28,259 nucleotides of DNA from Thermodesulfobacteriota bacterium (GTDB lineage: Bacteria; Desulfobacterota; QYQD01), in assembly GCA_030017815.1 (NCBI GenBank), contig JASEGX010000002.1, positions 1 through 28,259 of the forward strand. The letters run 5' to 3'. Positions 9,758 through 25,785 of this stretch are shown here, in pieces. How positions within the stretch are numbered: the stretch's first letter is position 1; each line of letters begins with the position of its first letter. The notes beneath the pieces are model-generated. The model was given only the letters and a program-made list of their open reading frames with translations. It was not told the DNA's origin and did not search any database. The translations under genes and the position numbers were made by a program.

Positions 9758-9883
9758 GCCTCTTGCAAAACTCCATTTTTTGTCATTCCCGCAACGCTTT
9801 TGAGCGGGAATCTGGTTTTATTCAAGTAAAAACCATATCCCCGATAGAATCATTCGGGGATGACAGACAATTTTGCAAGAGGC
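9758..9883. mobile_element. 126-bp MITE-like element, GCCTCTTGCAAAA family, copy 1
   Basis: Perfect 13-bp inverted ends GCCTCTTGCAAAA / TTTTGCAAGAGGC; internal GTCATTCCCGC..GCGGGAATC and ATCCCCGA..TCGGGGATGAC hairpins. Confidence 0.8.
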
Positions 9884-9925
9884 ACTAAATATAACAGATC
9901 TTGTATAATACCTGGTAATTTTAAG

Positions 9926-11698
9926 ATGGGAAACGACAAAGAATATAATAATGTTCCTGACCAGAAGGAATTAGAAAAGGAGCTGGCGGAGTATCTGTCC
10001 AAAAAATATGGGGATAAGGTGCGTATTCTCTCGCCGGTCGTCCTTCCCAAACCGGGCCCATCTGAATCCGGGGGCAATAAGACCTTAAGGGGTAGGGATA
10101 TTATTCTAAATTTTAATATCAAACCTAAAGAGCTTGAGGCCTATCTGGATGAATATATAATCAAACAGGATGAGGCCAAGGCTATCCTGGCCACCAAGGT
10201 CTGCACTCACTTCAACCGTATTAAGTATGCACTGGAGCATAAGAGAGACACGGAGGTGGGACAGATCAAGAATAACATCATTATGATCGGGCCTACCGGT
10301 GTAGGTAAGACCTACATGATAAAGCTGATTGCTAAGAAGCTCGGCGTGCCTTTTGTTAAGGGCGATGCTACCAAGTTCAGCGAGACCGGTTACGTGGGCG
10401 GTGATGTGGAAGACCTGGTTCGTGACCTTGTGCAGGAGGCGGGCGGGGATATGGAGCTGGCCCAGTATGGTATTATTTATATCGATGAGATAGATAAAAT
10501 TGCCTCCAGCGCCCACCATTTAGGCCCGGATGTCTCACGCACCGGTGTTCAGCGCGCCCTTCTGAAGCCGATGGAAGAAACCGACATAGATCTCCGGGTT
10601 CCCCACGATCCTATCGCCCAGCTTGAGGCCATAGAGCGTTATCGGAAGACCGGCAAACGGGAAAAAAGGACGGTTAACACCAGGAATATCCTTTTCATAG
10701 TGAGCGGCGCCTTTAACGATCTGGCGGATGTTATTAAGAAGCGCCTGACTGATCAGGGAATCGGTTTCGGCGCGCCTATTACATCCAAGGGTGACAGTGT
10801 CGATTATTTACGCCATGTTAAGGCGGAAGACCTTATTGAATACGGGTTCGAGTCAGAGTTTGTGGGCCGATTGCCTGTAGTAGCGGTTTTTGAGGGCTTA
10901 TCCGTGGAGGACCTGTACAATATCCTCAAAAATCCGGGCTGCCCGGTGATAAAAGGCAAAAAGCACGATTTTAAGGCCTACGGTATAGACATAACATTTG
11001 AAGATAAGGCATTACATATCCTGGCTGAGAAAGCTTATACAGAGAAGACGGGGGCGCGTGGATTATCCAGGGTCGTAGAGCGGGTCCTTTTAGGATTTGA
11101 AAAAACCCTGCCTTCAACCTCGATTCGTTCCTTAGTTGTCACTCCGGAGATAGTAGAGAACCCGGTTGCGGAGTTGGATCGTTTCCTTGCCAGTCCGGAT
11201 GACCCGGCCTATATCGAACGTTACCGTCGGGCCCGGGAGAGGGAATTAGATATTATAAAATCAACCATAGTGAAACGTCAAAAAGAAATATTTGAAAACC
11301 GCGGACTGTCTGTCAGTCCCTTCAGGCTGCGGTATATGGCCGAGCTATGTTTGACTCAGGATATTGATATACAGGCTTCTGTGGAAGAGCTTCTATTTAT
11401 AACTGAGGAAATAAAAGATTATGAAGCCACTTTTCTGGATAAATATGGCATAAAGATCATTTTTGAAGATGAGGCTATCGACCAGATAATTGGACAGGCC
11501 TGGCAGGAAGGCAGCACGGCTTATGTTGTTTGTAACAACTTAACCGAATCATATAGGTATGCCTTGAGAATAATTCAGGATAGGACCGGGCGAAACGTTT
11601 TTCATCTTCCCACCGAGGCGGTGTCCACCCCGGAAGGATTTATCAGCCATCTGATCAAGGAGTCCCTTGATAATTCTTTTGGTAATTCCTCAAAATAG
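9926..11698 (+). CDS. clpX: ClpX-like AAA+ ATPase lacking the N-terminal zinc-binding domain, with a C-terminal extension
   Basis: GPTGVGKT, DATKFSETGYVGGDVE, YIDEIDKI, DVSRTGVQRALLK, IGF loop, GARGL. ATG 9926 preferred because ATG 9860 lies inside the repeat element. Confidence 0.75.
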   Translation: MGNDKEYNNVPDQKELEKELAEYLSKKYGDKVRILSPVVLPKPGPSESGGNKTLRGRDIILNFNIKPKELEAYLDEYIIKQDEAKAILATKVCTHFNRIKYALEHKRDTEVGQIKNNIIMIGPTGVGKTYMIKLIAKKLGVPFVKGDATKFSETGYVGGDVEDLVRDLVQEAGGDMELAQYGIIYIDEIDKIASSAHHLGPDVSRTGVQRALLKPMEETDIDLRVPHDPIAQLEAIERYRKTGKREKRTVNTRNILFIVSGAFNDLADVIKKRLTDQGIGFGAPITSKGDSVDYLRHVKAEDLIEYGFESEFVGRLPVVAVFEGLSVEDLYNILKNPGCPVIKGKKHDFKAYGIDITFEDKALHILAEKAYTEKTGARGLSRVVERVLLGFEKTLPSTSIRSLVVTPEIVENPVAELDRFLASPDDPAYIERYRRARERELDIIKSTIVKRQKEIFENRGLSVSPFRLRYMAELCLTQDIDIQASVEELLFITEEIKDYEATFLDKYGIKIIFEDEAIDQIIGQAWQEGSTAYVVCNNLTESYRYALRIIQDRTGRNVFHLPTEAVSTPEGFISHLIKESLDNSFGNSSK

Positions 11699-12041: not shown

Positions 12042-13235
12042 ATGATCGGTATATCTAAACTTTATTGCGGTACGGTGGAGCCGTCTGACGCCTTGCGTTA
12101 TGGCAGACACTCCGGGAAGTTGCCCTCGCACCTTCTCCAGTTTTCGGCAGACAAAAAGCCGGTGGTGGTCTGGAATGCCACCCGGCGTTGTAACCTAAAG
12201 TGTGTGCATTGTTATGCCCAGGCGGACAGTGTGGGCGCACCGGATGAACTCTCCACGGCCGAAGGGAAAAAACTGATCGATGATCTAAGCCAGTTCGGCA
12301 GTCCGGTCCTTCTTTTCTCCGGCGGCGAGCCTTTTATGCGTCCGGATCTGCCTGAGCTTGCGGCTTACGCCGTGGAAAAAGGCATGCGGGCCGTAGTTTC
12401 TACAAACGGCACGCTTATCGGCAAAGACATGGCCAAGGTATTGAAGAAGATCGGCCTCTCTTATGTGGGTATAAGTCTTGATGGTATGGAAGAGGTCAAT
12501 GACCATTTTCGTGGGGTTAAGGGGGCCTTTGCCGGGGCCATGAGGGGTATTAGAAATTGTCGGGAAGCTGGTATTAAGGTAGGGTTAAGGTTTACCATAA
12601 ATAAACTTAATGCCGCCGAGATACCGGCCATTTTTGACCTGTTAGAACGGGAAGAAGTCCCGCGGATCTGTTTTTATCATCTGGTTTATGCGGGCCGGGG
12701 CAGTAAGCTGGTCGAAGAAGATCTTGCTCACGAAGAAACCCGGCGGGTAGTGGATATTATCATCGATCGTACTGCCGACTTGCACCGTCGAGGTAAGCCC
12801 AAAGAGGTGCTGACGGTGGACAATCATGCCGACGGGCCTTATGTCTATCTGCGTATGGTAAAGGAGAATTCACCCCGGGCTGCCGAGGTCCTGGAATTAC
12901 TTGAAATGAACGAGGGGAATAACTCCGGCCGGGGTATCGGCTGTGTAAGCTGGGACGGGAGCGTCCATGCGGATCAATTCTGGAGGCATTACTCATTTGG
13001 CAATGTCCGCCAACGTCCGTTTAGCGAGATCTGGACGGACTTATCCAATCCGCTTATGGCGGCCCTTAAGAATAAGAAGGCCCATGTCAATGGCCGCTGT
13101 GCCCGGTGTAAGTGGCTGGATATCTGCGCCGGTAATTTCCGGGTAAGGGCTGAGGCCGTCACCGGGGATATCTGGGCGCCGGACCCGGCTTGTTATCTGA
13201 CGGATAAAGAAATCGGGATTGCCGAGGAGGCTTAG
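12042..13235 (+). CDS. ahbC: Radical SAM 12,18-didecarboxysiroheme deacetylase (Fe-coproporphyrin III synthase)
   Basis: [23 protein letters not shown]-terminus, [13 protein letters not shown] cysteines, position upstream of hemB. Confidence 0.92.
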
Positions 13236-13237
13236 AG

Positions 13238-14212
13238 ATGCTGTTTCCGGATTATCGTCCGCGCCGCATGCGGCAGAATGAAAATTTCCGCGCCCTGATT
13301 CGGGAGACACAGCTTGCGCCTGATCAGCTTGTTTATCCCCTTTTTGTCGTGCTGGGGAAAAAGGTCAGGAAAGAGATCCCTTCTATGCCCGGGTGTTTTC
13401 AACTTTCTCTGGATCAGTTGAAGGCTGAGATAAAAGAGATAAAGGACACCGGGCTCAGATCTGTTCTCCTTTTTGGCATCCCGGAAAAGAAGGACGAGAT
13501 AGCCTCTCGGGCCTATGCCAAAGATGGCATTGTGCAAAGGGCGATAGCCGAGATAAAGTCATCTGATAAAGACCTTCTGGTTATTACGGATGTCTGTCTC
13601 TGTGAATACATGAGTCACGGCCACTGTGGATTTGTCTCCGGGGGCAAGATCGAAAATGATGCGACACTGGAGATACTGGGCAGGGTAGCCCTTTCCCATG
13701 CCCGGGCCGGGGCGGACATGGTTGCCCCTTCGGATATGATGGACGGCCGGGTGGCTGAGATCCGTGAGACCCTGGACGAAGATGGTTTTGAACACACACC
13801 CATCATGTCTTACGCGGTCAAGTACGCCTCCGGTTTTTACGGGCCTTTCCGCGAGGCGGCGGAGTGTGCCCCCCAGTTCGGCGACCGGCGTTCGTATCAG
13901 ATGGACCCCGCCAACAGCCGTGAGGCCCTGCGCGAGGCCACCCTGGACATGGAGGAAGGGGCTGACATCCTCATGGTTAAACCGGCCCTGCCTTATCTGG
14001 ATATCATCTCTCGCTTGCGGGAGGAATTTGACCATCCCATTGCCGCTTATCAGGTCAGCGGCGAGTATGCCATGGTAAAGGCGGCGGCCAAGATGGGCTG
14101 GCTGGATGAAGAGCGGGTCATGATGGAATGCCTTCTGAGTATCCGGAGGGCCGGAGCAGATATTATCATCACTTATTATGCCAAGGAGGCAGCGAGGTTA
14201 TTGCGCAGATGA
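13238..14212 (+). CDS. hemB: Porphobilinogen synthase (Zn type)
   Basis: [19 protein letters not shown] Zn motif, [26 protein letters not shown]. Confidence 0.97.
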
Positions 14213-15351
14213 AACCGAATCATCCTCATGGCCATCCTTCACATCCTTCCCATGCCCATAGTGGTCCTCCACAGGGGCAGGACGGACCGACGCTTCGCCT
14301 GGTAGCCTGGGAATTGACAAGGAACTGTAACCTTTCCTGTGTTCACTGTCGGGCATCCGCAACCCGTGGACCTTATGAAAACGAACTATCCACGGAAGAG
14401 TGCAAGAAGATTATCGACGACATCGCTGCCCATGCCCAGCCGGTCATGATCATGACCGGTGGTGAGCCTCTCCTGCGCGAGGATATCTTTGAACTGGCGC
14501 GCTATGGTACAGACAAAGGCCTGCGGATGGTGATGGCCACCAACGGCACCCTCATCACCCCGGAAGTGGCCCGGAAAATGGTAGAGGCCGGAGTAAAGAG
14601 GATTAGTATAAGCATTGACGGGGCCACAGCAGAAAGCCATGACAAATTCCGTCAGGTAGAAGGGGCCTTTAAGGGCGCGCTTCAAGGCATAGAAGAGGCG
14701 AAGCAGGCCGGTTTAGAGTTTCAGATTAATACCACGATTACTGAGACGAACCTCCATGAACTCCCGGCTATACAGGAGCTCACCGTATCACTCGGGGCGG
14801 TGGCTCACCACATCTTCCTCCTGGTCCCTACCGGACGCGGCAAAGATTTGGCCGCTCAGGCCCTTTCTGCCGGGGAATACGAACAAACCCTGAACTGGTT
14901 TTATGACCAAAGGGATAAAGTCCCCCTACACCTCAAGGCCACCTGTGCCCCTCACTATTATCGGATATTAAGACAGCGGGCCAAGGCTGAGGGGAAAGAG
15001 ATAACCTTCCAGTCCCACGGGCTGGATGCCGTGACCCGGGGATGCCTGGGCGGTGTCGGCTTCTGTTTTGTCTCACATCGGGGAGATGTCCAGCCTTGCG
15101 GTTATTTAGAGATAAACTGCGGCTCGGTGCGCGAGATGCCCCTTTCCCGTATCTGGCGTGAATCTCCTGTCTTTCTTAACTTGCGTAATCCCAAGATGTA
15201 CAAAGGCAAGTGCGGTATGTGTGAATATCATCGTTTCTGTGGCGGGTGCCGGGCGCGGGCCCATGAGATGTCCGGTGATTATCTGGCCGAGGAACCTCTC
15301 TGTACATATCAACCTTTAAAAATGCGGGCGCCGGCGAAGGAAAGTCATTAG
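14209..15351 (+). CDS. ahbD: Radical SAM AdoMet-dependent heme b synthase
   Basis: [48 protein letters not shown]; ATG 14209 overlaps the hemB stop (ATGA). Confidence 0.92.
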
Positions 15352-15378
15352 CTTTCAGCTATCAGTCATCAGTCACTA
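15351..15378 (-). repeat. Four degenerate heptamers of the AGCTGA(A/T) family, reverse orientation
   Basis: GCTTTCA GCTATCA GTCATCA GTCACTA immediately after the ahbD stop. Confidence 0.55.
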
Positions 15379-15429
15379 ACCGTCGGGTGTCAATCGCTCA
15401 AGTCCGTTTTGAATTTTGGACTTTGACCG

Positions 15430-15888
15430 TTGGGATTTAACAAAATGGATGCTACAGACCGGGCCATTTTAAACGAGATACAATCCCATTTTCCGATTGA
15501 ATCTCGCCCCTATGCGACTATAGGAGAGCGGCTCCAACTCACGGAGACAGAAGTTTTAGACCGGATTAGGCGTTTGCAGGATAGGGGTATAATACGCCGT
15601 CTGGGGGCGAATTTTGATTCCCGCCGCCTGGGTTATATGACTACTCTCTGCGGGGCCAAGGTCCCACCGGAAAAATTAGAGGAATTTGTGGAGGTCGTAA
15701 ACTCTTATCAGGGAGTGACCCATAACTACTTACGCAGACACGCCTTCAATGTCTGGTTTACCTTTATCGCCGGGTCGGAAGAGGCCATCGAGAGGCAACT
15801 GCAGGAGATAACTGAAAAGACCGGCGTTAAGGTCTACAACTTTCCCGCCATACGTTTATTCAAGATCAGGGCTGAGTTTAAGGTCTGA
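15430..15888 (+). CDS. ahbA: Siroheme decarboxylase alpha subunit (Lrp/AsnC-like)
   Basis: DRAILNEIQSHFP, IIRRLGANFDSRRLG, GVTHNYLR, NVWFTFIA; context next to ahbC/ahbD. The start may be the ATG five codons downstream. Confidence 0.88.
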   Translation: MGFNKMDATDRAILNEIQSHFPIESRPYATIGERLQLTETEVLDRIRRLQDRGIIRRLGANFDSRRLGYMTTLCGAKVPPEKLEEFVEVVNSYQGVTHNYLRRHAFNVWFTFIAGSEEAIERQLQEITEKTGVKVYNFPAIRLFKIRAEFKV

Positions 15889-17016: not shown

Positions 17017-17571
17017 ATGAAGAGGATTGCCAAATTGCTCTTTGAGGCCGGGATGCTGAAAAAGACGCCGCGTACCGGCTTCCGTTTTCTGGGTTCCGGT
17101 CAGGAATCAGTGGCAGATCATTCCTACCGGGTCATTTTCATCGGATATGTGCTGGCCGGGCTTTCACCGGGTGTCGATCGATCTAAGGTAATGGAGTTAT
17201 GTCTCTTCCACGATCTGGTTGAGGCCCGGACCGGGGACCTGAATTATGTTTACAAGGACTATGCTACGGTGGACTCAGCCAAGGCGGTCGCTGCCCTGAC
17301 CAAGGACCTCGATTTTGGGGAGGACATCGCCGGATTAATAACAGAGTTCAAATCCGGCCATACCGAAGAGGCGAGATTAGCCCGGGACGCCGATCAGTTA
17401 GACCTCATCCTTGAGCTCAAAGAACAGCATGACCTTGGGAATAAGTTTGCCCGGGAGTGGCTGGCACACGTAGTCAAACGGATCACCACACCGGCCGGCC
17501 AGGAGCTTGCCGGGGAGATATTAGAGACCGATTTCTGCTCCTGGTGGTTTGATAAGTATCGGGAGAGGTAA
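17017..17571 (+). CDS. HD-domain hydrolase (YfbR/HDDC2-like 5'-deoxynucleotidase)
   Basis: LKKTPRTGF, ESVADHSYR, LFHDLVEARTGD, ARDADQLD; GGAG RBS. Confidence 0.85.
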   Translation: MKRIAKLLFEAGMLKKTPRTGFRFLGSGQESVADHSYRVIFIGYVLAGLSPGVDRSKVMELCLFHDLVEARTGDLNYVYKDYATVDSAKAVAALTKDLDFGEDIAGLITEFKSGHTEEARLARDADQLDLILELKEQHDLGNKFAREWLAHVVKRITTPAGQELAGEILETDFCSWWFDKYRER

Positions 17572-17573
17572 AG

Positions 17574-17600
17574 AAAGTTCAAAGTTCAAAGTTTAAAGTT
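17574..17600 (+). repeat. Short heptamer array GTTCAAA
   Basis: GAAA GTTCAAA GTTCAAA GTTTAAA GTT. Confidence 0.6.
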
Positions 17601-17830
17601 TGATGAATTTGTCACACCGGTGAAGCTCGGAGCTATGTAGGGTAGGCTCAGCTCACAAAAACTACGCTACGTCAGCAATGATGGTGGGCAAAGCCCACCC
17701 TACGTTTGTCATTCCGTGCCTGACACGGAATCCAGAGCCCAAGCCGCGAAAGAAAAACCTGGATTCCCGTTCCCCGATCGTGGTCGAGGACAAGTTTCAC
17801 GGGAATGACGACTTGTTACGAGTTCATCAA
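17600..17830. mobile_element. 231-bp composite MITE-like element with TTGATGAA ends
   Basis: Inverted ends TTGATGAATTTGT / ACGAGTTCATCAA (11/13); contains a GTAG REP pair and two GTCATTCC/GGAATGAC hairpins. Confidence 0.7.
17637..17703. repeat. Inverted GTAG-REP doublet nested in the element
   Basis: GTAGGGTAGGCTCAGCTCAC ... GGTGGGCAAAGCCCACCCTAC. Confidence 0.75.
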
Positions 17831-17862
17831 TTATAGTAGATGGAAATCAGGAGGTAGGATCC

Positions 17863-19113
17863 ATTAGCACACCCTCATGCAATAAGTGCGGGACGTGCAT
17901 GAGTGTCTGTCCCGTTTACCAGGCAACAGGGCTGGAGGCCTATTCCCCCCGGGGCAAATTAAGCCTTATCGAGGCCAACCGGGAAGGCCGGTTACCGTTT
18001 TCCGACCGCTTTGAAGAATTGCTCTCCTACTGTCTTCTTTGCGGGGCCTGTACGAATGCCTGTCCCGCCGGGGTAAATGCGGATGTCTCCATACAGGAAG
18101 CGCGGGCAAGGTTGGTCGAAGAGAAGGGACTCCCGGCGGGGAAGCGATACTTTTTTCATTACCTTCTGGATTCTGAGCGCCTTTTGCCCTTTATATTAAA
18201 AAGCGGTTCCCTGATCCAGGGCCTCCTTTGCAAAAGAATCCCGGAAGACAGCGGCCTTCATTGTCGATTTCCGATCCCTCTGTTGGCCGGAAGGTCATGG
18301 CTGCCGCCATTGGCGCCGACCTTTTTTCTGGATAATGACCTGCCCCAGGAAACAAGCGCCCCGGCTAAGGCAGCTTACTTTACAGGATGCATCACAAATT
18401 ATCTCTTTCCTAACGTAGGTAAGGCTGTCCTGAATATTTTTGACTTTCTCGGAGAGCCTGTATGGGCGCCCAAGAAGCAGAAATGCTGTGGGTTCCCGGC
18501 CTTTTGTGCCGGGGATGAAGAGACGGCGCGTTCCCTGGCACGGGCCAATATCTCGGCATTCCTGGATGGCCGGTTCGATTACATCGTTACGACCTGTGCC
18601 TCCTGCAGCTCCCATCTAAGATTTAATTATCCCAGGCTTCTGGCCGCCGACCCGGTCTTTGCAGAAAAAGCGGCGGAATTTTCGGCAAAAGTGATGGATA
18701 TATCGGTTTTTTTATCCCATAACAAGGGATTTCCCCGGCAGTTATCGGATCTCACGCCGAAAACCGGCAGCCTGAAGGTGACGTATCATGATCCCTGCCA
18801 TTTTCGGTTTAGAGAAAAGATATTCGAGGAGCCGCGTCTGCTCATCAAGTCGCTGCCCGGAGTTGATTTTCGCGAACCGGCCGGCGGAGCTGCGTGTTGC
18901 GGACATGGCGGGTTGTTTAATATAACCCATTATGACCTGTCCCAGGAGATTCTTGATAAAAGGATGGCTGTGTTAAGAGACACGGGAGCAGATATCTTAG
19001 TTACCAGTTGCATGGGCTGTCTGTTACAGTGGAAGGAGGGTCTGGTTAGGCATGGGCTTAATGCACAGGCCATGCATCTGGTAGAGTTATTCGATATTTT
19101 TTTGTCAAAATGA
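17863..19113 (+). CDS. GlcF/GlpC-like (Fe-S)-binding oxidoreductase subunit, 2x[4Fe-4S] plus two CCG domains
   Basis: CNKCGTCMSVCP (starts upstream of ATG 17899), CLLCGACTNACP, CCGFP, YHDPCH, CCGHGG. Start placed at ATT 17863 after AGGAGG. Confidence 0.85.
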   Translation: MSTPSCNKCGTCMSVCPVYQATGLEAYSPRGKLSLIEANREGRLPFSDRFEELLSYCLLCGACTNACPAGVNADVSIQEARARLVEEKGLPAGKRYFFHYLLDSERLLPFILKSGSLIQGLLCKRIPEDSGLHCRFPIPLLAGRSWLPPLAPTFFLDNDLPQETSAPAKAAYFTGCITNYLFPNVGKAVLNIFDFLGEPVWAPKKQKCCGFPAFCAGDEETARSLARANISAFLDGRFDYIVTTCASCSSHLRFNYPRLLAADPVFAEKAAEFSAKVMDISVFLSHNKGFPRQLSDLTPKTGSLKVTYHDPCHFRFREKIFEEPRLLIKSLPGVDFREPAGGAACCGHGGLFNITHYDLSQEILDKRMAVLRDTGADILVTSCMGCLLQWKEGLVRHGLNAQAMHLVELFDIFLSK

Positions 19114-19455: not shown

Positions 19456-19836
19456 ATGAAAAACAGGGGCATTCTGCTGATGATAGTCATGGCTGTTTTT
19501 ATAATAGCTACTTGTGCTTACGCCCAGGAAGAAGTGCTGAAACTGGAGCATAAGGCCTTTGAAAAACGACAGAGGCCGGGCGTGACATTCCAGCATGCCC
19601 AACACTTTGCTACCATTGAGTGTACGGCGTGCCATCATTTTTATGTAAACGGACAGAACGTCTGGGATGAGTCGCGGGAAACGAATTGTGCGGCCTGCCA
19701 TGGCTTGGAGGCCGAAGGTAAGAAAATGGGCCTTATGAAGGCGTTTCACGAGAACTGCGTGGGTTGTCACCGGGAGACCAAACCGGCAGCAGGCAAGTCA
19801 CTCCCGGTGATGTGTGGCGAATGCCACAAAAAATAA
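19456..19836 (+). CDS. Periplasmic tetraheme cytochrome c3 (class III)
   Basis: Sec signal peptide (AYA|QEE), four CxxCH (CTACH, CAACH, CVGCH, CGECH), VTFQHAQH and KAFH distal His motifs; AGGAGG RBS. Confidence 0.92.
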   Translation: MKNRGILLMIVMAVFIIATCAYAQEEVLKLEHKAFEKRQRPGVTFQHAQHFATIECTACHHFYVNGQNVWDESRETNCAACHGLEAEGKKMGLMKAFHENCVGCHRETKPAAGKSLPVMCGECHKK

Positions 19837-19971: not shown

Positions 19972-21267
19972 ATGAGCCCAGGTAGCTTTTCTGGCGGTAT
20001 TTGCTTGTCTATTTCAGACGCAAGCGCAAACAAACCCTTCGAACGTATCATCCCCTCCGGTGTTGTAACTATCCCTCTCAGGCAGGATCTCGGCGGAATT
20101 TGCAATGCCAAGGTCAAAAAGGGTGATGAGGTCAAGGTCGGACAGGTAATCGGTGAAAGCGCCGGTCCGGAAGGCGCCTCTATCCATGCCACGGTTTCCG
20201 GTAAAGTAGCCGATGTAATAAAGGCCTATCCCCATTTTTCAGGGGGATTCGTCCCGGCTGTGCTCATAGAATCCGATGGCAAGGATGAGTGGGTGGGACT
20301 GGAGGGCAGCGCAGACCCAATGGCCGCCATACAACAGGCGGGAATTATTGATTTTGATATAAAGCCGGTACCGCTTGCAGCCAAGCTCAACGAGGCAAAG
20401 TCTCGCCGGGCTAACGCCCTTATTGTGAATGCCATGGACATAGAGCCGGTACTCTCGAGCCGGTCACGTCTGTTGTCTGAAAGGGTTCAGGAAGTGGCCT
20501 GCGGGATAGACACTATAAAAAGCATAATCGGCGCAGCATCGGTGTATGTTGCCGTCGATAAAGGTGCGTCTCAGGCTATGTCCGCTGTCGGTTCCGCCTG
20601 CGGTGGCGCGGCTACCGTAGTGGGGTTGAACCCTAAGTATCCCCAGGCTGTTGACCTCTTACTGGTAAAGTCGATACTGGGTAAGGAGGTGCCCTGTACA
20701 GAGGCCTATTGTGTGGCCGATATAGGCGCCCTGGTCCTGAGTGTCGAGACAGTGGCGGCGGTGGGCCGGGCTATGGCGGATAAAAAGCCGGTGGTGGACA
20801 GGTTCATAACCATTACCGGCGCCAACGGGACCGGCGCCAAAAATGTCCAGGTAAGGATAGGCACGACGATTAAGGAAGTTCTGGGGCATTGTGGAATTTC
20901 CGTGGAAGGGATGGGCAAGGTTATAGCCGGCGGCCCCATGATGGGCACGGCCATCGCCAATACCGAGACGCCGGTGACCAAAGAGGTGCTGGGTATCTTT
21001 GTCCAGCATGAGAAAGAGATTACCGGGTTCGACTCGGCTGTCTGTATCAAATGCGGGTTATGTATCGAGGTGTGTCCGGTAGGCCTGATGCCGTTCCTTA
21101 TTTCCGGCTTTTCGGAAAAAGGGGTATATGCCAAGGCTGCGGCCAACGATATATTTACATGCTTTGAATGTGGATGCTGTGTCTACGTGTGCCCGGTAAT
21201 GATACCAATGGTGCACTGGATAAAATTTGGCAAGGCACAAATTATGGCGCAAAGGAGTAGCGAATGA
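19972..21267 (+). CDS. rnfC: RnfC-like subunit with degenerate FMN/NAD motifs
   Basis: FSGGI, VKKGDEVKVGQVIG..IHATVSGKV, KYPQ, GGPMMG, CIKCGLCIEVCP and CFECGCCVYVCP. Confidence 0.9.
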   Translation: MSPGSFSGGICLSISDASANKPFERIIPSGVVTIPLRQDLGGICNAKVKKGDEVKVGQVIGESAGPEGASIHATVSGKVADVIKAYPHFSGGFVPAVLIESDGKDEWVGLEGSADPMAAIQQAGIIDFDIKPVPLAAKLNEAKSRRANALIVNAMDIEPVLSSRSRLLSERVQEVACGIDTIKSIIGAASVYVAVDKGASQAMSAVGSACGGAATVVGLNPKYPQAVDLLLVKSILGKEVPCTEAYCVADIGALVLSVETVAAVGRAMADKKPVVDRFITITGANGTGAKNVQVRIGTTIKEVLGHCGISVEGMGKVIAGGPMMGTAIANTETPVTKEVLGIFVQHEKEITGFDSAVCIKCGLCIEVCPVGLMPFLISGFSEKGVYAKAAANDIFTCFECGCCVYVCPVMIPMVHWIKFGKAQIMAQRSSE

Positions 21268-22232
21268 AAGCCCCGGAACTTGTCGTATCTGCTACGCCGC
21301 ATATCCATAGCGGCAACTCCGTTCAAAAGATGATGCTGAACATAATCATCGCCCTGATCCCGGCGATAGCTGCGGGGGTATATTTTTATGGTATGGGCGC
21401 GGTGCGGGTTGTCGCTGTCTCAGTGCTCTCAGCCGTGGCCTGGCAGGCTATCTTACAAAAGATGATGGGGAGGAAGGTTACCATCAATGACCTGACCGCT
21501 GTGGTAAGTGGTCTCGTCTTGGCTGCCATCCTTTCGCCCACGCTGCCGTGGTGGATGATCGTGATCGCTACCTTGATTATGATCCTTCTTGGGAAAGAGA
21601 TTTACGGCGGGCTGGGCTGTAACCCGTTTAACGGTGTCTTGGTGGCTTACGTGGCATTAAGGTTGTCTTATCCGGAGGCCATGATTGCCTGGACGCCGCC
21701 GGCCGGTGATATAATGACCGAGCTGCCCCCCCTCCAGGTCTTGAGGGATGAAGGGGTCGGGGTTATCTGGGAATACTTTACTTTGAAAGACCTGCTCATT
21801 GGTAAGGTAGCCGGTACCGCAGGTGAAGGGTGCAAGATCGCTCTTCTGATAGGAGGTCTTTTCCTCCTCTTGAGGCGTAACTTTTCCTGGCATATTCCGG
21901 TCAGCTTTCTGGCAGGTATCGCAATCCTCTCAGGGATTCTGTGGCTGGCTGATCCAGAGAAATATGCCAGTCCGGTCTTTCATCTCCTGGTTGGCGGTAG
22001 TTTCCTGGCGGCCTTTTTTCTGGCTACCGATTCCACTACCTCACCGGTTACACCAATTGCTATGGTACTATATGGATTGATAGCCGGAATGCTTACGGTG
22101 GTTATACGGGCCTGGGCCCAATGGGAGGATGGGGCCTACTTTGCGGTCCTTATGATCAGTACATTAACTCCGCTTTTAGATATGATCAAACCAAGAGTCT
22201 ATGGGAGGGTGAAGGCCAGTGCAAGTTCGTGA
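21264..22232 (+). CDS. rnfD: RnfD subunit, FMN-attachment Thr apparently absent
   Basis: SATPHIH, GKEIYGGLGCNPFN, AAFFLATDSTTSP; hydrophobic, about 10 TM. Confidence 0.92.
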   Translation: MKAPELVVSATPHIHSGNSVQKMMLNIIIALIPAIAAGVYFYGMGAVRVVAVSVLSAVAWQAILQKMMGRKVTINDLTAVVSGLVLAAILSPTLPWWMIVIATLIMILLGKEIYGGLGCNPFNGVLVAYVALRLSYPEAMIAWTPPAGDIMTELPPLQVLRDEGVGVIWEYFTLKDLLIGKVAGTAGEGCKIALLIGGLFLLLRRNFSWHIPVSFLAGIAILSGILWLADPEKYASPVFHLLVGGSFLAAFFLATDSTTSPVTPIAMVLYGLIAGMLTVVIRAWAQWEDGAYFAVLMISTLTPLLDMIKPRVYGRVKASASS

Positions 22233-22806
22233 AATCATTAAGATGATTGTGGTTTTGACGCTCATTGCCGCTGTCTGCGGAGGGGGACTGTCGCTTGTCA
22301 AACTAGCTACAGCGGAACAAATTGCCTATCAGCAGATAAAATTCATCAAGGAGCCTGCCTTGAAGAAGGTGCTCACCGGTTATGACAATGACCCCGTCAC
22401 AGACCGGAAGGACATCGTAACCGGCAAGGACAAGAAGGGTAAGGACGTAGTAACCACCTTCTTTTTTGCCAAAAAAGGTGGTCAGGTTATCACCGTTGCC
22501 TTTGAAGCCAGCGCTACCGGATTTCATGGCGATATCGGCGTAATGATGGCCGTTAACCCTGAGATTGACAAGCTGGATGGAATAGCCATTACCTCCCAGT
22601 CCGAGACGCCGGGTGTGGGCACCAGGGTAGCGGATGACCCATCCTTCTGCGCCCAGTTCAAGGACAAGTCCTTAACGGCTAATTTCAGCCTTGGGGGCGA
22701 GGTTCAGGGGCTGAGCGGGGCTACGGTATCCTCGGCCGGTGTAAGCAACGCGGTAAAGGCTGGTGTGGAGACTTACAAGAAATATAAATCCCAGTTGGGC
22801 GTATAA
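22219..22806 (+). CDS. rnfG: RnfG subunit (covalent FMN)
   Basis: N-terminal TM, GFHGDIGVMMAV, ETPGVG, LSGATVSS FMN motif. Confidence 0.92.
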   Translation: MQVREIIKMIVVLTLIAAVCGGGLSLVKLATAEQIAYQQIKFIKEPALKKVLTGYDNDPVTDRKDIVTGKDKKGKDVVTTFFFAKKGGQVITVAFEASATGFHGDIGVMMAVNPEIDKLDGIAITSQSETPGVGTRVADDPSFCAQFKDKSLTANFSLGGEVQGLSGATVSSAGVSNAVKAGVETYKKYKSQLGV

Positions 22807-22823: not shown

Positions 22824-23429
22824 ATGGCGCGCATTGTCAGTGAATTCACCAAGGGCCTCTGGAAGGAGATCCCTCCCTTCCGTTTCGTCCTCGGCCTGTG
22901 TTCGGCTCTGGCTGTGACTACGGACGTGGCCAATGGTCTAGGTCTGGGGGGCGGGGTCATTTTTGTGACCACCATGGGGAACGTCTTTGTCTCCATGCTG
23001 CGCAAGATTATACCGGATAAGGTGAGGATAGCGGTCTTTATTGCCATCATTGCCAGCGCGGTCATCATAGTGGAGCTGGTGATGCAGGCCTATTTCTATC
23101 CGCTTTTCCTGGTGCTCGGTATCTGGATACCCCTTATCGTAGTTAACTGAGTGCCTCTGGGACGGGCGGAGGCCTTCGCCCGCAAAGAGCCGGTCGGGCT
23201 CTCTTTAGCTGATGGATTAGGAATGGGGTTAGGATTTACCATATCATTGGTTGTGGTATCGACCATTCGGGAGATACTGGGTAAGGGTTCCTGGTTCGGG
23301 ATTCCGGTTATGCCGGTGGGTTATCCGGGCATGCCGTACCTTCTTAAGCCGCCGGGGGCCTTTGCCTTGTTGGGCCTGCTGCTCGGCATTATGAACTTTA
23401 TTTCCTTAAAGCTGGAAGCCAAGAAGTAG
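22824..23429 (+). CDS. rnfE: RnfE subunit, 201 aa with in-frame TGA at codon 109 (predicted selenocysteine)
   Basis: ORFs 22809-23150 and 23151-23429 are in frame and join as IPLIVVN-[TGA]-VPLGRAEAFA; LGLCSALAVTT, DGLGMGLGFT, PPGAF; GAGGAGG RBS before ATG 22824. Confidence 0.88.
23151..23190 (+). ncRNA. Candidate bacterial SECIS element (cis-acting mRNA hairpin)
   Basis: 7-bp stem GGGCGGA/TTCGCCC (23164-23181) with GGCC loop; loop starts 20 nt after the UGA and begins with G; possible lower stem CTCT/AGAG. Confidence 0.7.
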
Positions 23430-23450: not shown

Positions 23451-24029
23451 ATGCAACAAGACTGGTTCATGTTTATCCTGTCGGCTATTATCGTTAACAA
23501 CATCCTCCTGATAAGGTTCCTGGGAAACTGTCCCTTCCTGGGGGTTACCACGGCCATGGACAGCGCCCTCGGCATGTCCGCGGCCTGTATTTTTGTGAAT
23601 GTTCTTTCCGGCGTTCTCTGCTGGATATTTCAGAAGGCGGTACTGGATACCCTGGGTCTGGAATACCTGCAGACGCTGGCCTTTATTCTGATCATTGCCG
23701 GCCTGGTCCAGTTCGTGGAGATGGTGGTTCAGAAGGTATCACCGGCGCTTTACCGGGCCCTGGGTATCTACCTGCCGCTTATAACCACCAACTGCATGAT
23801 CTTTGGCGTGGCCGTGTTAAACATCCGGGAGGATCATGATTTTATACATACAGTTGTTTATTCTCTGGCCACCGCCCTTGGGTTTAGTCTGGCTATGGTG
23901 ATCATGGCCGGTATCCGGGAAAGGATGCTCATTGCCAGGATACCCAAGCTTCTGGATGGGGTACCACTGGGTTTAATCACGGCCGGCATGATAGGTCTTA
24001 CCTTTTATGCCTTGGCCGGCATATCTTAA
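23451..24029 (+). CDS. rnfA: RnfA subunit
   Basis: NNILLIRFLGNCPFLG, ALGIYLPLITTNCMIFG, MAGIRER; both cluster cysteines present. Confidence 0.95.
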   Translation: MQQDWFMFILSAIIVNNILLIRFLGNCPFLGVTTAMDSALGMSAACIFVNVLSGVLCWIFQKAVLDTLGLEYLQTLAFILIIAGLVQFVEMVVQKVSPALYRALGIYLPLITTNCMIFGVAVLNIREDHDFIHTVVYSLATALGFSLAMVIMAGIRERMLIARIPKLLDGVPLGLITAGMIGLTFYALAGIS

Positions 24030-24053: not shown

Positions 24054-24860
24054 ATGGGACCGATAATCACAGCAGTGGCGGCTATGGGGGCCTTAGGATT
24101 GGGGCTGAGCGTTGTGCTTGGTGTGGCCAGTAAGGTTTTTTACGTCTATGTTGACCCGCGCATTACCCAAGTAGCCGACGTGCTGCCGGGCGCCAATTGT
24201 GGCGGCTGCGGCTACGCCGGTTGTAGCGACTGTGCGGCGGCTATGGTGGAAGGCAAAGCGCCGGTTAACGCCTGCAAGGCTGGCGGGGCCTCGGTGGCCC
24301 AGGCAGTAGCCGGTGTGCTGGGTGTCTCGGCCGTGGCGGCAGAGCGCGAGGTGGCCAGGATCTTCTGTAAAGGTGACAATACCAGGGCCGAAAGAAAGTT
24401 CCAATACATGGGTATTAATGATTGCCGGGCTGCCATGCTGGTCTCCAGCGGTGACAAATCGTGTGGTTACGGGTGCCTGGGGCTTGGCACCTGCGTAGCC
24501 AATTGTCCGTTTGGGGCCCTTAGCATGGGTGAAGATGGCCTGCCCAGGGTAGATGATGAAAAATGTACGGCTTGCGGGACATGTGTTAAGGTTTGCCCGC
24601 GGCATATTCCCCGGGTGATCCCAGTATCGCAGAAAGCGGCCAGCCTGTGCAGCTCGCATGATGTTGGTAAGCTGGTCAAGGAGATCTGTGAGGCCGGCTG
24701 TCTGGGATGCGGCTTGTGTAAAAAGGCGTGTCCGGAAAAGGCGATTGAGGTGGTGAAGTTTCTTTCCGTTGTAGATACTGCCAAGTGCAATGGTTGCGGG
24801 AAGTGCTTTGAGAAATGCCCGACCGGCATTATGCAGAGCTTGGTTTTCACTGTAGTATAA
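24054..24860 (+). CDS. rnfB: RnfB subunit (polyferredoxin)
   Basis: LPGANCGGCGYAGC, GCLGLGTCVANCPF, CTACGTCVKVCP, CLGCGLCKKACP, CNGCGKCFEKCP. Confidence 0.95.
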   Translation: MGPIITAVAAMGALGLGLSVVLGVASKVFYVYVDPRITQVADVLPGANCGGCGYAGCSDCAAAMVEGKAPVNACKAGGASVAQAVAGVLGVSAVAAEREVARIFCKGDNTRAERKFQYMGINDCRAAMLVSSGDKSCGYGCLGLGTCVANCPFGALSMGEDGLPRVDDEKCTACGTCVKVCPRHIPRVIPVSQKAASLCSSHDVGKLVKEICEAGCLGCGLCKKACPEKAIEVVKFLSVVDTAKCNGCGKCFEKCPTGIMQSLVFTVV

Positions 24861-24871
24861 GGAGGCGTTGA

Positions 24872-25348
24872 ATGTCTCAAAAGATATTGATAGCTATGGA
24901 TGAGTCTGAGAATTCGATGAAGGCGGTGCGGTATGTGGCTGACACCGTGAACCCAAAGGCCGTAGAGGTAACCCTGTTCAGTGTGCTTCCGGAGGCTCCC
25001 GGCACTGGCCTGGAAAAGGAACCCTCGCTGCATCCCGTATTTGCCAGTAAGATGCTGGAGTTAAAGGGGCTGACGGAAGAGAAGCGTAAGATAATGGAAT
25101 CCGTTACGGCTTCGGCCAGGAAAATTCTGGAGAAAGCAGGGATCCCGGGCGATAAAATAAGCATTAATATCCAGGTAAAGAAGGTCGGTATAGCCAGGGA
25201 CATTATGTTTGAGGCCCAGGAAGGAAAGTATAATGCCATAGTTGTCGGGCGAAGGGGTGTTTCTGCAATAAAGGAATTTATGTTCGGTAGCATTTCGAAC
25301 AAGGTGGTAAGCTTTGCACGAAACTGTACGGTCTGGGTTGTGGATTGA
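24872..25348 (+). CDS. Universal stress protein (single domain)
   Basis: KILIAMDESENS, IVVGRRGVSAIKEFMFGSISNKVV. Confidence 0.9.
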   Translation: MSQKILIAMDESENSMKAVRYVADTVNPKAVEVTLFSVLPEAPGTGLEKEPSLHPVFASKMLELKGLTEEKRKIMESVTASARKILEKAGIPGDKISINIQVKKVGIARDIMFEAQEGKYNAIVVGRRGVSAIKEFMFGSISNKVVSFARNCTVWVVD

Positions 25349-25350
25349 GG

Positions 25351-25785
25351 ATGGCCCATATCCGCGAAGAAGAAGGGGAAGTAATTGCCGTTGAAGGCAA
25401 CCAGGCTAAGGTTAGGATCAGACGCAGCCCGGCCTGTGACAGTTGTTCAAGCAGCAGCAGTTGTGGTTTACTTGGTAAAGGTGAGATGGTGCTAACTGCA
25501 TTAAATCCAATAGGGGCTTCGGAAGGGCAAAAGGTGGACGTTTCGTTCAAGGTTGAGGGAGGGGTCAAGGCCTCTTTTATTCTGTACCTAATTCCCGTGG
25601 TTGGCCTGGTAGCAGGGGCATTAATCGGCTATAGCTTGCATTTATTTGGTGATAAGGAGATTTCAGCGGCCGTCTTTAGTCTGTTGTTTGTGGCGCTTAC
25701 TTTTCTTGGCATCAAATATTATGCGCACATCAGATATGCCAAGGATCAATCTTACATCCCAAAGATTACAAAGGTAGTGGCTTAA
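25351..25785 (+). CDS. rseC: RseC/MucC family membrane protein
   Basis: EGEVIAV..AKV, CDSCSSSSSCG, GQKVDV, ILYLIP, two C-terminal TM helices. Confidence 0.85.
   Translation: MAHIREEEGEVIAVEGNQAKVRIRRSPACDSCSSSSSCGLLGKGEMVLTALNPIGASEGQKVDVSFKVEGGVKASFILYLIPVVGLVAGALIGYSLHLFGDKEISAAVFSLLFVALTFLGIKYYAHIRYAKDQSYIPKITKVVA

Follow-up and report, generated by a model that had tools for sequence, protein, structure and literature searches.

In the canonical Rnf complex electrons pass from ferredoxin through the RnfB clusters, the RnfA/E cluster, the flavin mononucleotide (FMN) of RnfG, the FMN of RnfD, riboflavin, the two RnfC clusters and the FMN of RnfC to NAD+. The model for the A. woodii complex ties Na+ translocation to reduction of the RnfA/E cluster and discharge of the electron to RnfG-FMN (PMC11889175). 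The FMN/NADH site of RnfC is built by the Gly-rich, ECEP, and YPQG loops of a NuoF-like fold (PMC9588780; PMC11889175). Here we describe an rnfCDGEAB operon in a 28,259-nucleotide stretch of DNA from a Thermodesulfobacteriota bacterium (contig JASEGX010000002.1, positions 1 to 28,259; hereafter the window), in which the RnfC signatures of this site have been replaced. The reading we prefer, at a probability of roughly 0.55, is that the operon is intact but its RnfC has no FMN/NAD(H) pocket, and that the complex would not act as a ferredoxin:NAD+ oxidoreductase but would exchange electrons between ferredoxin and periplasmic cytochrome c3 at RnfG.

Several described systems depart from the canonical pattern. 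An RnfC without an NAD site has already been reported, on the basis of domain annotation, for the Rnf of Desulfobacula toluolica Tol2. As summarized in a paper on Desulfococcus multivorans (PMC5109826, citing Woehlbrand et al. 2016, Proteomics 16:973), which is our source for the definition of this type, the Tol2-type cluster combines an RnfC lacking the NADH-oxidoreductase domain with an RnfB of ∼700 residues containing NAD-binding sites and with a small cytochrome; such an RnfC is said there to need another electron acceptor or donor (PMC5109826). An operon consisting of a decaheme cytochrome gene followed by rnfCDGEAB is known from D. alaskensis G20 and D. vulgaris (PMC4841214, PMC4215793). 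In D. alaskensis Rnf is essential for growth on H2, formate, and ethanol, and genetics led to its interpretation as a ferredoxin:NADH oxidoreductase (PMC4215793). Vesicle experiments on ferredoxin-to-NAD+ coupling were reported as "unsuccessful" (PMC4841214). The M. acetivorans MmcA-RnfCDGEAB system does not use NAD and works as a ferredoxin:methanophenazine oxidoreductase with the multiheme cytochrome c MmcA, encoded by the first gene of the operon (PMC4023990). Finally, NqrA of the Na+-NQR arose from RnfC through loss of cofactors (PMC11889175, PMC9588780). In the open literature we found no paper on loss of the flavin site in small-RnfB or Desulfovibrio-type RnfC, nor on the corresponding loss in RnfD. 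As judged from its genes, the window locus is a member of the published lineage of NAD-site-less Rnf, with a small RnfB, a leading tetraheme c3 gene, and an RnfE that probably contains selenocysteine.

RnfC and the signatures of its FMN/NAD(H) site

The positions of rnfC and of the motifs discussed in this section are as follows.

19972 to 21267, + strand: rnfC, 431 residues, free of stop codons
20341 to 20388, + strand: GIIDFDIKPVPLAAKL, RnfC residues 124-139, where the Gly-rich FMN loop GIVGxGGAxFPTxxKL is expected
20428 to 20451, + strand: NAMDIEPV, RnfC residues 153-160, where N(G/A)AECEP(Y/F) is expected
20638 to 20655, + strand: YPQAVD, RnfC residues 223-228, where YPQGAE is expected
21043 to 21195, + strand: two CxxCxxCxxxCP [4Fe-4S] motifs, CIKCGLCIEVCP (residues 358-369) and CFECGCCVYVCP (residues 397-408)

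By every whole-protein measure the open reading frame (ORF) encodes a genuine RnfC subunit. It scores 339.8 bits with the RnfC subfamily model TIGR01945 (cut-off 245.95), and a Pfam scan finds the RnfC_N, Complex1_51K, and Fer4 domains; the N-terminal barrel-sandwich domain (PF13375) scores 67.9 bits. With phmmer it matches the RnfC chains of solved structures from A. vinelandii (8ahx_C), A. woodii (9eri_C), and C. tetanomorphum (7zc6_C) end-to-end, with E values of ∼1e-64 and ∼30% identity. The product comprises an N-terminal barrel, a degenerate NuoF-like FMN/NADH domain, an SLBB-like part, and the two [4Fe-4S] motifs; GGPMMG is kept at residues 320-325. An AlphaFold2 model of the protein has a mean predicted local distance difference test score (pLDDT) of 77.7, with values of ∼90 for residues 20-220 and around 90 for residues 120-270; the Fe-S domain is poorly modeled (pLDDT 33-51). 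The closest structural matches to this model are the same three RnfC chains, followed by NqrA and then by subunits of the NuoF/HydB type.

Within this conserved framework all three signatures of the NuoF-type FMN/NADH site are replaced. In the phmmer alignments AGIIDFDIKPVP, with the core GIIDFDIKPVP, faces AGIVGLGGAxFP of the three solved proteins; NAMDIEPVL faces NGSECEPYL, NGAECEPYL, or NAAECEPYL; and YPQA faces YPMG or YPQG. The three glycines of GxGG have become Asp, Asp, and Ile, and the Cys of ECEP and the Gly of YPQG are also gone. Consistent with this, the Nuo51 FMN-binding model PF01512 scores 71 bits, compared with 183-188 bits in three canonical RnfC proteins. The window thus shares with canonical RnfC the fold, length, barrel, NuoF-like domains, GGPMMG, both [4Fe-4S] motifs, and the rnfCDGEAB context, and differs from it in the Gly loop, ECEP, and YPQG and in an RnfD without the FMN threonine (below). 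An earlier note made from the DNA alone had called the replacements at residue 124 onward, NAMDIEPV, and YPQAVD, and had stated that the N-terminal barrel, GGPMMG, and both ferredoxin motifs were retained. Translation and alignment to the three solved proteins bear out each of these calls, although YPQAVD lies beyond the range 20341 to 20460 (residues 124-163) to which the note had assigned the changes. From these replacements we infer that the RnfC of the window binds neither flavin nor NAD(H).

Conservation of the altered motifs

The replacements are not peculiar to the window. A homolog search covering 5.8 billion proteins returned 33 homologs with 41-94% identity (P0002-P0034), all of which have G[IV]VD[FYL]D..[VI]P, N[AG]xD[IV]EP, and YPQ[AS] at the three sites. 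At 38% identity and below every RnfC match is canonical, with GIVGxGGAxFPT, NGAECEPY, and YPQGAEK. G124, D127, K138, and D156 are invariant in the alignment of the clade, as are all eight cluster cysteines. Across 409 aligned RnfC proteins the three motifs were all present in 280, all absent in 108, and mixed in only 21, showing that they are lost as a unit. We refer below to RnfC with replaced or deleted motifs as degenerate.

A maximum-likelihood tree was calculated for 69 RnfC proteins from genome loci after removal of the FMN-domain columns. All 20 degenerate proteins fall on one side of a single branch, requiring one change of state, and the window RnfC is placed in a starred group of 13 rows. 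The hosts are almost all Thermodesulfobacteriota and include Desulfobacterales, Desulfohalobiaceae, Desulfonatronovibrio, Syntrophobacter, and Desulfarculia. The clade contains three forms of the complex, namely one with a large RnfB, one with a small RnfB (that of the window), and a Desulfovibrio form. The Tol2-like large-RnfB loci (L049, 9839 to 12106; L072, 4254 to 6401; L074, 9870 to 11984) encode RnfB proteins of 705-756 residues; they group together inside the degenerate clade, on the same side of the branch as the window. The Tol2-type Rnf ("Rnf2" of Desulfobacteraceae), as far as it is described in PMC5109826, resembles the window in that its RnfC has no NADH-domain signature and its cluster includes a gene for a small cytochrome c. 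It differs in its RnfB of ∼700 residues with NAD-binding sites, the RnfB of the window having 268 residues and Fe-S domains only. Because the latter has no nucleotide module, the complex of the window has no recognizable NAD(P)H site.

Outside the main clade four further RnfC proteins (P0117, P0235, P0320, and P0328) have a partly degenerate Gly loop and ECEP motif, for example GIIGNSGDTLP and NGCQGEP. The NAD site may thus have started to disappear on more than one occasion among RnfC proteins.

The altered motifs are also under selection. When the window was paired with each of five relatives that came from other samples (L086, L088, L130, L131, and L132), the ratio of nonsynonymous to synonymous substitution rates (dN/dS) was 0.08-0.17 over the whole of rnfC, 0.09-0.17 over the former FMN domain (residues 111-270), and 0.06-0.13 within the motif cores. 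The last range shows that the altered loops themselves are held by selection. Together with the retention of the substitutions throughout the clade, these ratios agree with the earlier note's proposal that selection rather than decay shaped the protein. The genome, which is 90% complete at 2.25 Mb, has one rnfC in total, and no second, canonical copy was found in it. It also contains dsrA and four genes of the c3 family; the presence of DsrA marks the organism as a bacterium of the sulfate/sulfite-reducer type.

The reach of these losses was examined in 101 Desulfovibrionales genomes with the NCBIfam equivalog model RnfG_DVU2794, which scored above its cut-off in 31, and twelve loci were fetched. 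In 11 of the 12 a decaheme cytochrome gene is followed by rnfCDGEAB. The eleven RnfC proteins have a 14-residue deletion spanning the whole Gly-rich loop, with NGLNPEPG for NGAECEPY and YPATID for YPQGAE. PF01512 scores 16.6 bits in RnfC of this type, below its cut-off, and the Fe-S cluster cysteines are retained. RnfD lacks the ATPL threonine and RnfG retains SGAT in all eleven loci. These dhcA-rnf-type loci thus show the same losses as the window in more extreme form; their tie to the model Desulfovibrio strains is by operon architecture and the DVU2794 model alone. Judged through these architecture-matched loci, the dhcA-rnfCDGEAB(F) operons of Desulfovibrionaceae (Dde_0580-0587; DVU2791-2798) resemble the window in being cytochrome-led and in having a small RnfB, degenerate RnfC and RnfD, and SGAT in RnfG. 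The window differs in encoding a cytochrome with four hemes (c3) rather than ten (DhcA), in a Gly loop that is substituted rather than deleted, in an RnfC identity of 22-31%, in the absence of apbE/rnfF from the end of the operon, where Usp and RseC genes follow rnfB, and in an RnfG that falls below the cut-off of the DVU2794 model (NF045876; 198.6 bits against 205).

These data bear on the possibility that the pocket has merely diverged, in which case RnfC would go on binding FMN and NAD(H) and the complex would be an ordinary ferredoxin:NAD+ oxidoreductase, the usual depiction for sulfate reducers. In favor of this, the protein retains the NuoF-like fold, with pLDDT of ∼90 over residues 120-270; PF01512 still scores above its cut-off at 71 bits; Lys-138 and Glu-158-Pro-159 of the old motifs remain; and the genetics of Desulfovibrio has been read in terms of a ferredoxin:NADH activity (PMC4215793). 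However, the GxGG glycines, the ECEP cysteine, and the YPQG glycine are all replaced, the related Desulfovibrio-type RnfC has the loop deleted and falls below the PF01512 cut-off, and the three motifs have been lost together in 108 of 409 proteins; in the window the RnfD FMN site is gone too. We consider a diverged but functional pocket improbable.

Operon partners and a proposed route of electrons

The gene order in the window is HD-domain protein, HdrD-like CCG protein, tetraheme c3, rnfC, rnfD, rnfG, rnfE, rnfA, rnfB, usp, rseC-like gene, CitMHS_2 transporter, and usp, and relatives from other assemblies have the same order. The genes next to rnfC are as follows.

17899 to 19113, + strand: HdrD/GlpC-like protein with a 4Fe-4S dicluster and two CCG domains, upstream of the cytochrome gene
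19456 to 19836, + strand: tetraheme class III cytochrome c with four CxxCH motifs and a Sec-type signal peptide, MKNRGILLMIVMAVFIIATCAYA|QEE (ending AYA|QEE), directly upstream of rnfC
21264 to 22232, + strand: rnfD, with D-I-M-T-E-L-P-P-L in place of D-x-x-T-x-A-T-P-L
22219 to 22806, + strand: rnfG, periplasmic FMN subunit, with the SGAT flavinylation motif kept at 22714 to 22725
22824 to 23429, + strand: rnfE, with Cys-26 kept and an in-frame TGA at 23148 to 23150, where PLIVVNC has its universally conserved Cys, one of the ligands of the RnfA/E Fe-S cluster
23451 to 24029, + strand: rnfA, with Cys-27 and Cys-115 kept
24054 to 24860, + strand: rnfB, small form, a polyferredoxin of 268 residues with 25 Cys, its Fe-S motifs kept, without the NAD(P)H-binding extension
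24872 to 25785, + strand: Usp and RseC/MucC-family genes directly 3' of rnfB, kept with the operon in close relatives

The five remaining rnf genes, rnfD, rnfG, rnfE, rnfA, and rnfB, directly follow rnfC, as expected of an rnfCDGEAB operon. RnfD has lost its flavin anchor. Thr-156 of A. woodii RnfD carries covalent FMN (PMC11889175), and in the alignment with 9eri_D this residue is faced by Pro-155 of the window protein (21726 to 21728); the motif [ST]xATPL is absent. The RnfC and RnfD losses go together in most cases, since 17 of the 20 loci with degenerate RnfC have no Thr at the RnfD FMN site (four of the 17 have Ser in an otherwise changed motif), and ∼41 of 44 loci with canonical RnfC retain xATPL in RnfD. 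The cofactor motifs of the steps up to RnfG are retained. [ST]GAT is kept in RnfG of every fetched locus where it could be assessed, and in the window the SGAT of RnfG, the cluster ligands of RnfA (Cys-27 and Cys-115) and RnfE (Cys-26 and the TGA-encoded position 109, read as selenocysteine), and the Fe-S motifs of RnfB are all in place.

The TGA codon in rnfE qualifies the statement in the earlier note that there is no frameshift, which holds for rnfC itself but passes over this in-frame stop in the same operon. The TGA recurs at the same Cys site in five further loci from other samples (L086, L087, L088, L131, and L132), and each of the six has, 15 nucleotides 3' of the codon, an identical 8-bp hairpin whose loop is GGCC/GGCU. 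Homologs with a Cys codon have no hairpin even though the peptide is identical; these include the 90% identical L130, which has TGT. The genome encodes SelA and SelB with scores above the curated cut-offs. By folding energy alone the hairpin is not significant (z = −0.26). Position 109 of RnfE is probably a selenocysteine ligand. Evidently because of the TGA, rnfE goes uncalled in close relatives: no rnfE is called between rnfG and rnfA in the NCBI assemblies L086 (9836 to 10481) and L088 (9836 to 10478), and in Logan contigs it is called only as a fragment of 108-109 residues. Automatic annotation consequently shows an Rnf operon without RnfE.

The in-frame stop, and the failure of the NCBI gene callers to find rnfE in relatives, could be taken as signs that the operon is being lost and that the motif changes are neutral damage. 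We regard this as extremely improbable. The dN/dS ratios are ∼0.1 throughout rnfC and the substitutions are kept clade-wide; the stop is always TGA at the conserved Cys, with an identical hairpin in six loci and with selA and selB present, which indicates that the operon is intact. On sequence analysis, a pseudogene reading is ruled out by the dN/dS ratios, the conservation in the clade, and the reading of the rnfE TGA as selenocysteine.

On the reading that we prefer, the canonical route is divided in two. The outward branch, from ferredoxin through the RnfB clusters and the RnfA/E cluster to periplasmic RnfG-FMN, appears complete, and the cytoplasmic return branch, from RnfD-FMN through riboflavin, the RnfC clusters, and RnfC-FMN to NAD+, appears to have been dismantled in the lineage of the window. 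With the sites up to RnfG intact and the two flavin sites beyond it missing, it is simplest to suppose that electrons would leave or enter at RnfG-FMN, to or from a pool of c3-type cytochromes in the periplasm, one of which is encoded directly upstream of rnfC and, having a typical signal peptide, is predicted to be periplasmic. The ferredoxin-to-c3 redox span is similar to that from ferredoxin to NAD+. Ion translocation would still be coupled at the step from RnfA/E to RnfG. Since the RnfD FMN threonine is lost and no conserved gene for a cytoplasmic partner was found, RnfC may be mainly a structural cap, kept by selection on RnfD and RnfB as NqrA is in Nqr, and its Fe-S clusters could be structural or form a side branch. 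The role of the cytochrome as redox partner and the retention of ion pumping are both inferred.

Like the RnfC of the window, NqrA is an RnfC-derived cytoplasmic subunit that has lost the FMN/NADH site and caps an RnfD homolog; NqrA has lost both Fe-S clusters, whereas they are kept in the window. The window protein is not itself an NqrA, scoring 38 bits with TIGR01936 (cut-off 321) and 17.8 bits with PF05896 (cut-off 25), and having Fe-S motifs and an rnf context. A rewiring like that of Nqr, with electrons passing from RnfG through RnfD to membrane quinone (menaquinone) and RnfC in the cofactor-poor role of NqrA at the quinone site, would have a precedent in the origin of NqrA by cofactor loss (PMC11889175, PMC9588780) and would fit with NqrA being the best structural match after RnfC. 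Nevertheless, Nqr keeps the covalent FMN of NqrB, the equivalent anchor in RnfD is lost here, the Fe-S motifs of RnfC are kept, the NqrA models score far under their cut-offs, the ferredoxin module RnfB is retained, and there is no NqrF-like gene. Such a rewiring is, in our estimate, a shade less credible even than a functional pocket in RnfC.

The earlier note had proposed that RnfC serves as an Fe-S relay or adaptor, and this idea fares less clearly than its sequence observations. It would have a flavin-free RnfC whose two [4Fe-4S] clusters link the membrane core to another cytoplasmic partner docked in the former NAD cleft; candidates are the HdrD-like CCG protein encoded upstream, DsrC, and a ferredoxin or flavodoxin. 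None of the eight cluster cysteines varies within the clade, and Desulfovibrio-type RnfC has them too; D127, K138, and D156 are invariant and under purifying selection, as would be expected if they formed a new surface for binding; close relatives keep the HdrD-like gene in synteny; and the need of such an RnfC for another acceptor or donor has been stated (PMC5109826). Conversely, RnfD no longer has the FMN anchor from which the RnfC clusters are fed, and members of the clade have no gene for a cytoplasmic partner in common next to rnfC. A distance of 25-30 Å or more separates the RnfB from the RnfC clusters in canonical Rnf (PMC9588780, PMC11889175), so that an electron short cut between them is not available. 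We judge a relay through RnfC rather unlikely.

Electron exchange with the cytochrome pool at RnfG, the reading that we prefer, has several points against it. The Thr of RnfD is still present in three loci with degenerate RnfC (L008, L019, and L061). Both the RnfC and the RnfD losses trace to about one ancestral event, and their co-occurrence is therefore not independent statistical evidence. A cytochrome gene beside rnfC is missing in most small-RnfB members of the clade. In D. alaskensis the decaheme cytochrome gene of the operon is dispensable under conditions where Rnf is required (PMC4215793). A search for RNA runs containing the window operon returned none. The eight RnfC cluster cysteines are invariant, unlike the situation in cofactor-free NqrA, so electrons may still pass through RnfC, and this keeps the relay idea alive. 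A non-canonical flavin or nucleotide site in RnfC may also be compatible with the sequence.

Neighboring genes and implications for sulfate reducers

The tetraheme c3 gene is kept upstream of rnfC in five relatives (L086, L087, L088, L130, and L132), and a four-heme cytochrome gene is directly upstream of rnfC in L074 and L060. Apart from the close relatives of the window and the Desulfovibrio-type loci, an rnfC-upstream cytochrome was seen only in the window, L060, and L074. We rejected the idea that a cytochrome gene precedes every degenerate rnfC, as most small-RnfB members of the clade are without one.

The HD-domain phosphohydrolase and HdrD-like genes (17017 to 19113) are syntenic with c3 and rnf in L086, L088, and L130 but were not found beside rnf in more distant members of the clade. 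On its domain content the HdrD/GlpC-like CCG protein is a possible cytoplasmic redox partner. The genes found upstream of rnfC in clade members encode ApbE, an [FeFe]-hydrogenase fusion, HycI, transporters, and a Band 7 protein. The fusion, encoded at 2852 to 5263 of L013 (a Desulofervidaceae metagenome-assembled genome), joins an MvhD/FlpD-like domain to the large and small subunits of an [FeFe]-hydrogenase; its gene sits two upstream of the degenerate rnfC, with a HycI protease gene between.

Two other groups of genes in the window may be mentioned. Upstream of the cytochrome and rnf genes, positions 12042 to 15888 contain two radical-SAM/SPASM genes, hemB (ALAD), and a NirD/L-like regulator of the siroheme decarboxylase type. 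This cluster looks like an alternative, siroheme-dependent pathway of heme biosynthesis, which would suit a cytochrome-rich organism. Positions 9860 to 11698 encode an AAA+ protein of 612 residues whose domains (AAA_2, ClpB_D2-small) are those of the ClpX/ClpB-lid type; there is no clpP in the neighborhood.

The archaeal system is a precedent for an Rnf that works with a cytochrome instead of NAD, but its cofactor sites differ from those of the window. The cofactor sites of RnfC and RnfD are reported to be conserved in the Rnf of M. acetivorans (bioRxiv 10.1101/2022.07.20.500911) and are lost in the window; the single fetched Methanosarcinales locus (L018) is likewise canonical. Among sulfate reducers, the reading proposed for the window might be extended to the whole Rnf lineage, including the dhcA-rnf operons, which would then be an ion-translocating ferredoxin:periplasmic-c3 oxidoreductase operating through the RnfB-RnfA/E-RnfG half of the complex and not a ferredoxin:NAD+ oxidoreductase. 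We put this extension forward tentatively, at somewhat less than even odds. The window locus is a clean minimal case: its RnfB is small, none of its subunits has an NAD(P)H module, and it encodes a periplasmic cytochrome of its own.

Metabolic reconstructions of sulfate reducers and syntrophs nearly always show Rnf as a ferredoxin:NAD+ pump. For RnfC of the degenerate clade the automatic label "ferredoxin:NAD+ oxidoreductase subunit C" is unsafe. If the wider proposal is true, the energy-conservation schemes of sulfate reducers that route Rnf electrons to NADH need to be redrawn. Should RnfC in this lineage be unable to interact with NAD, a key energy-conserving enzyme of a guild of global importance has been assigned the wrong electron partner, and the ATP yields derived from that assignment are wrong as well.

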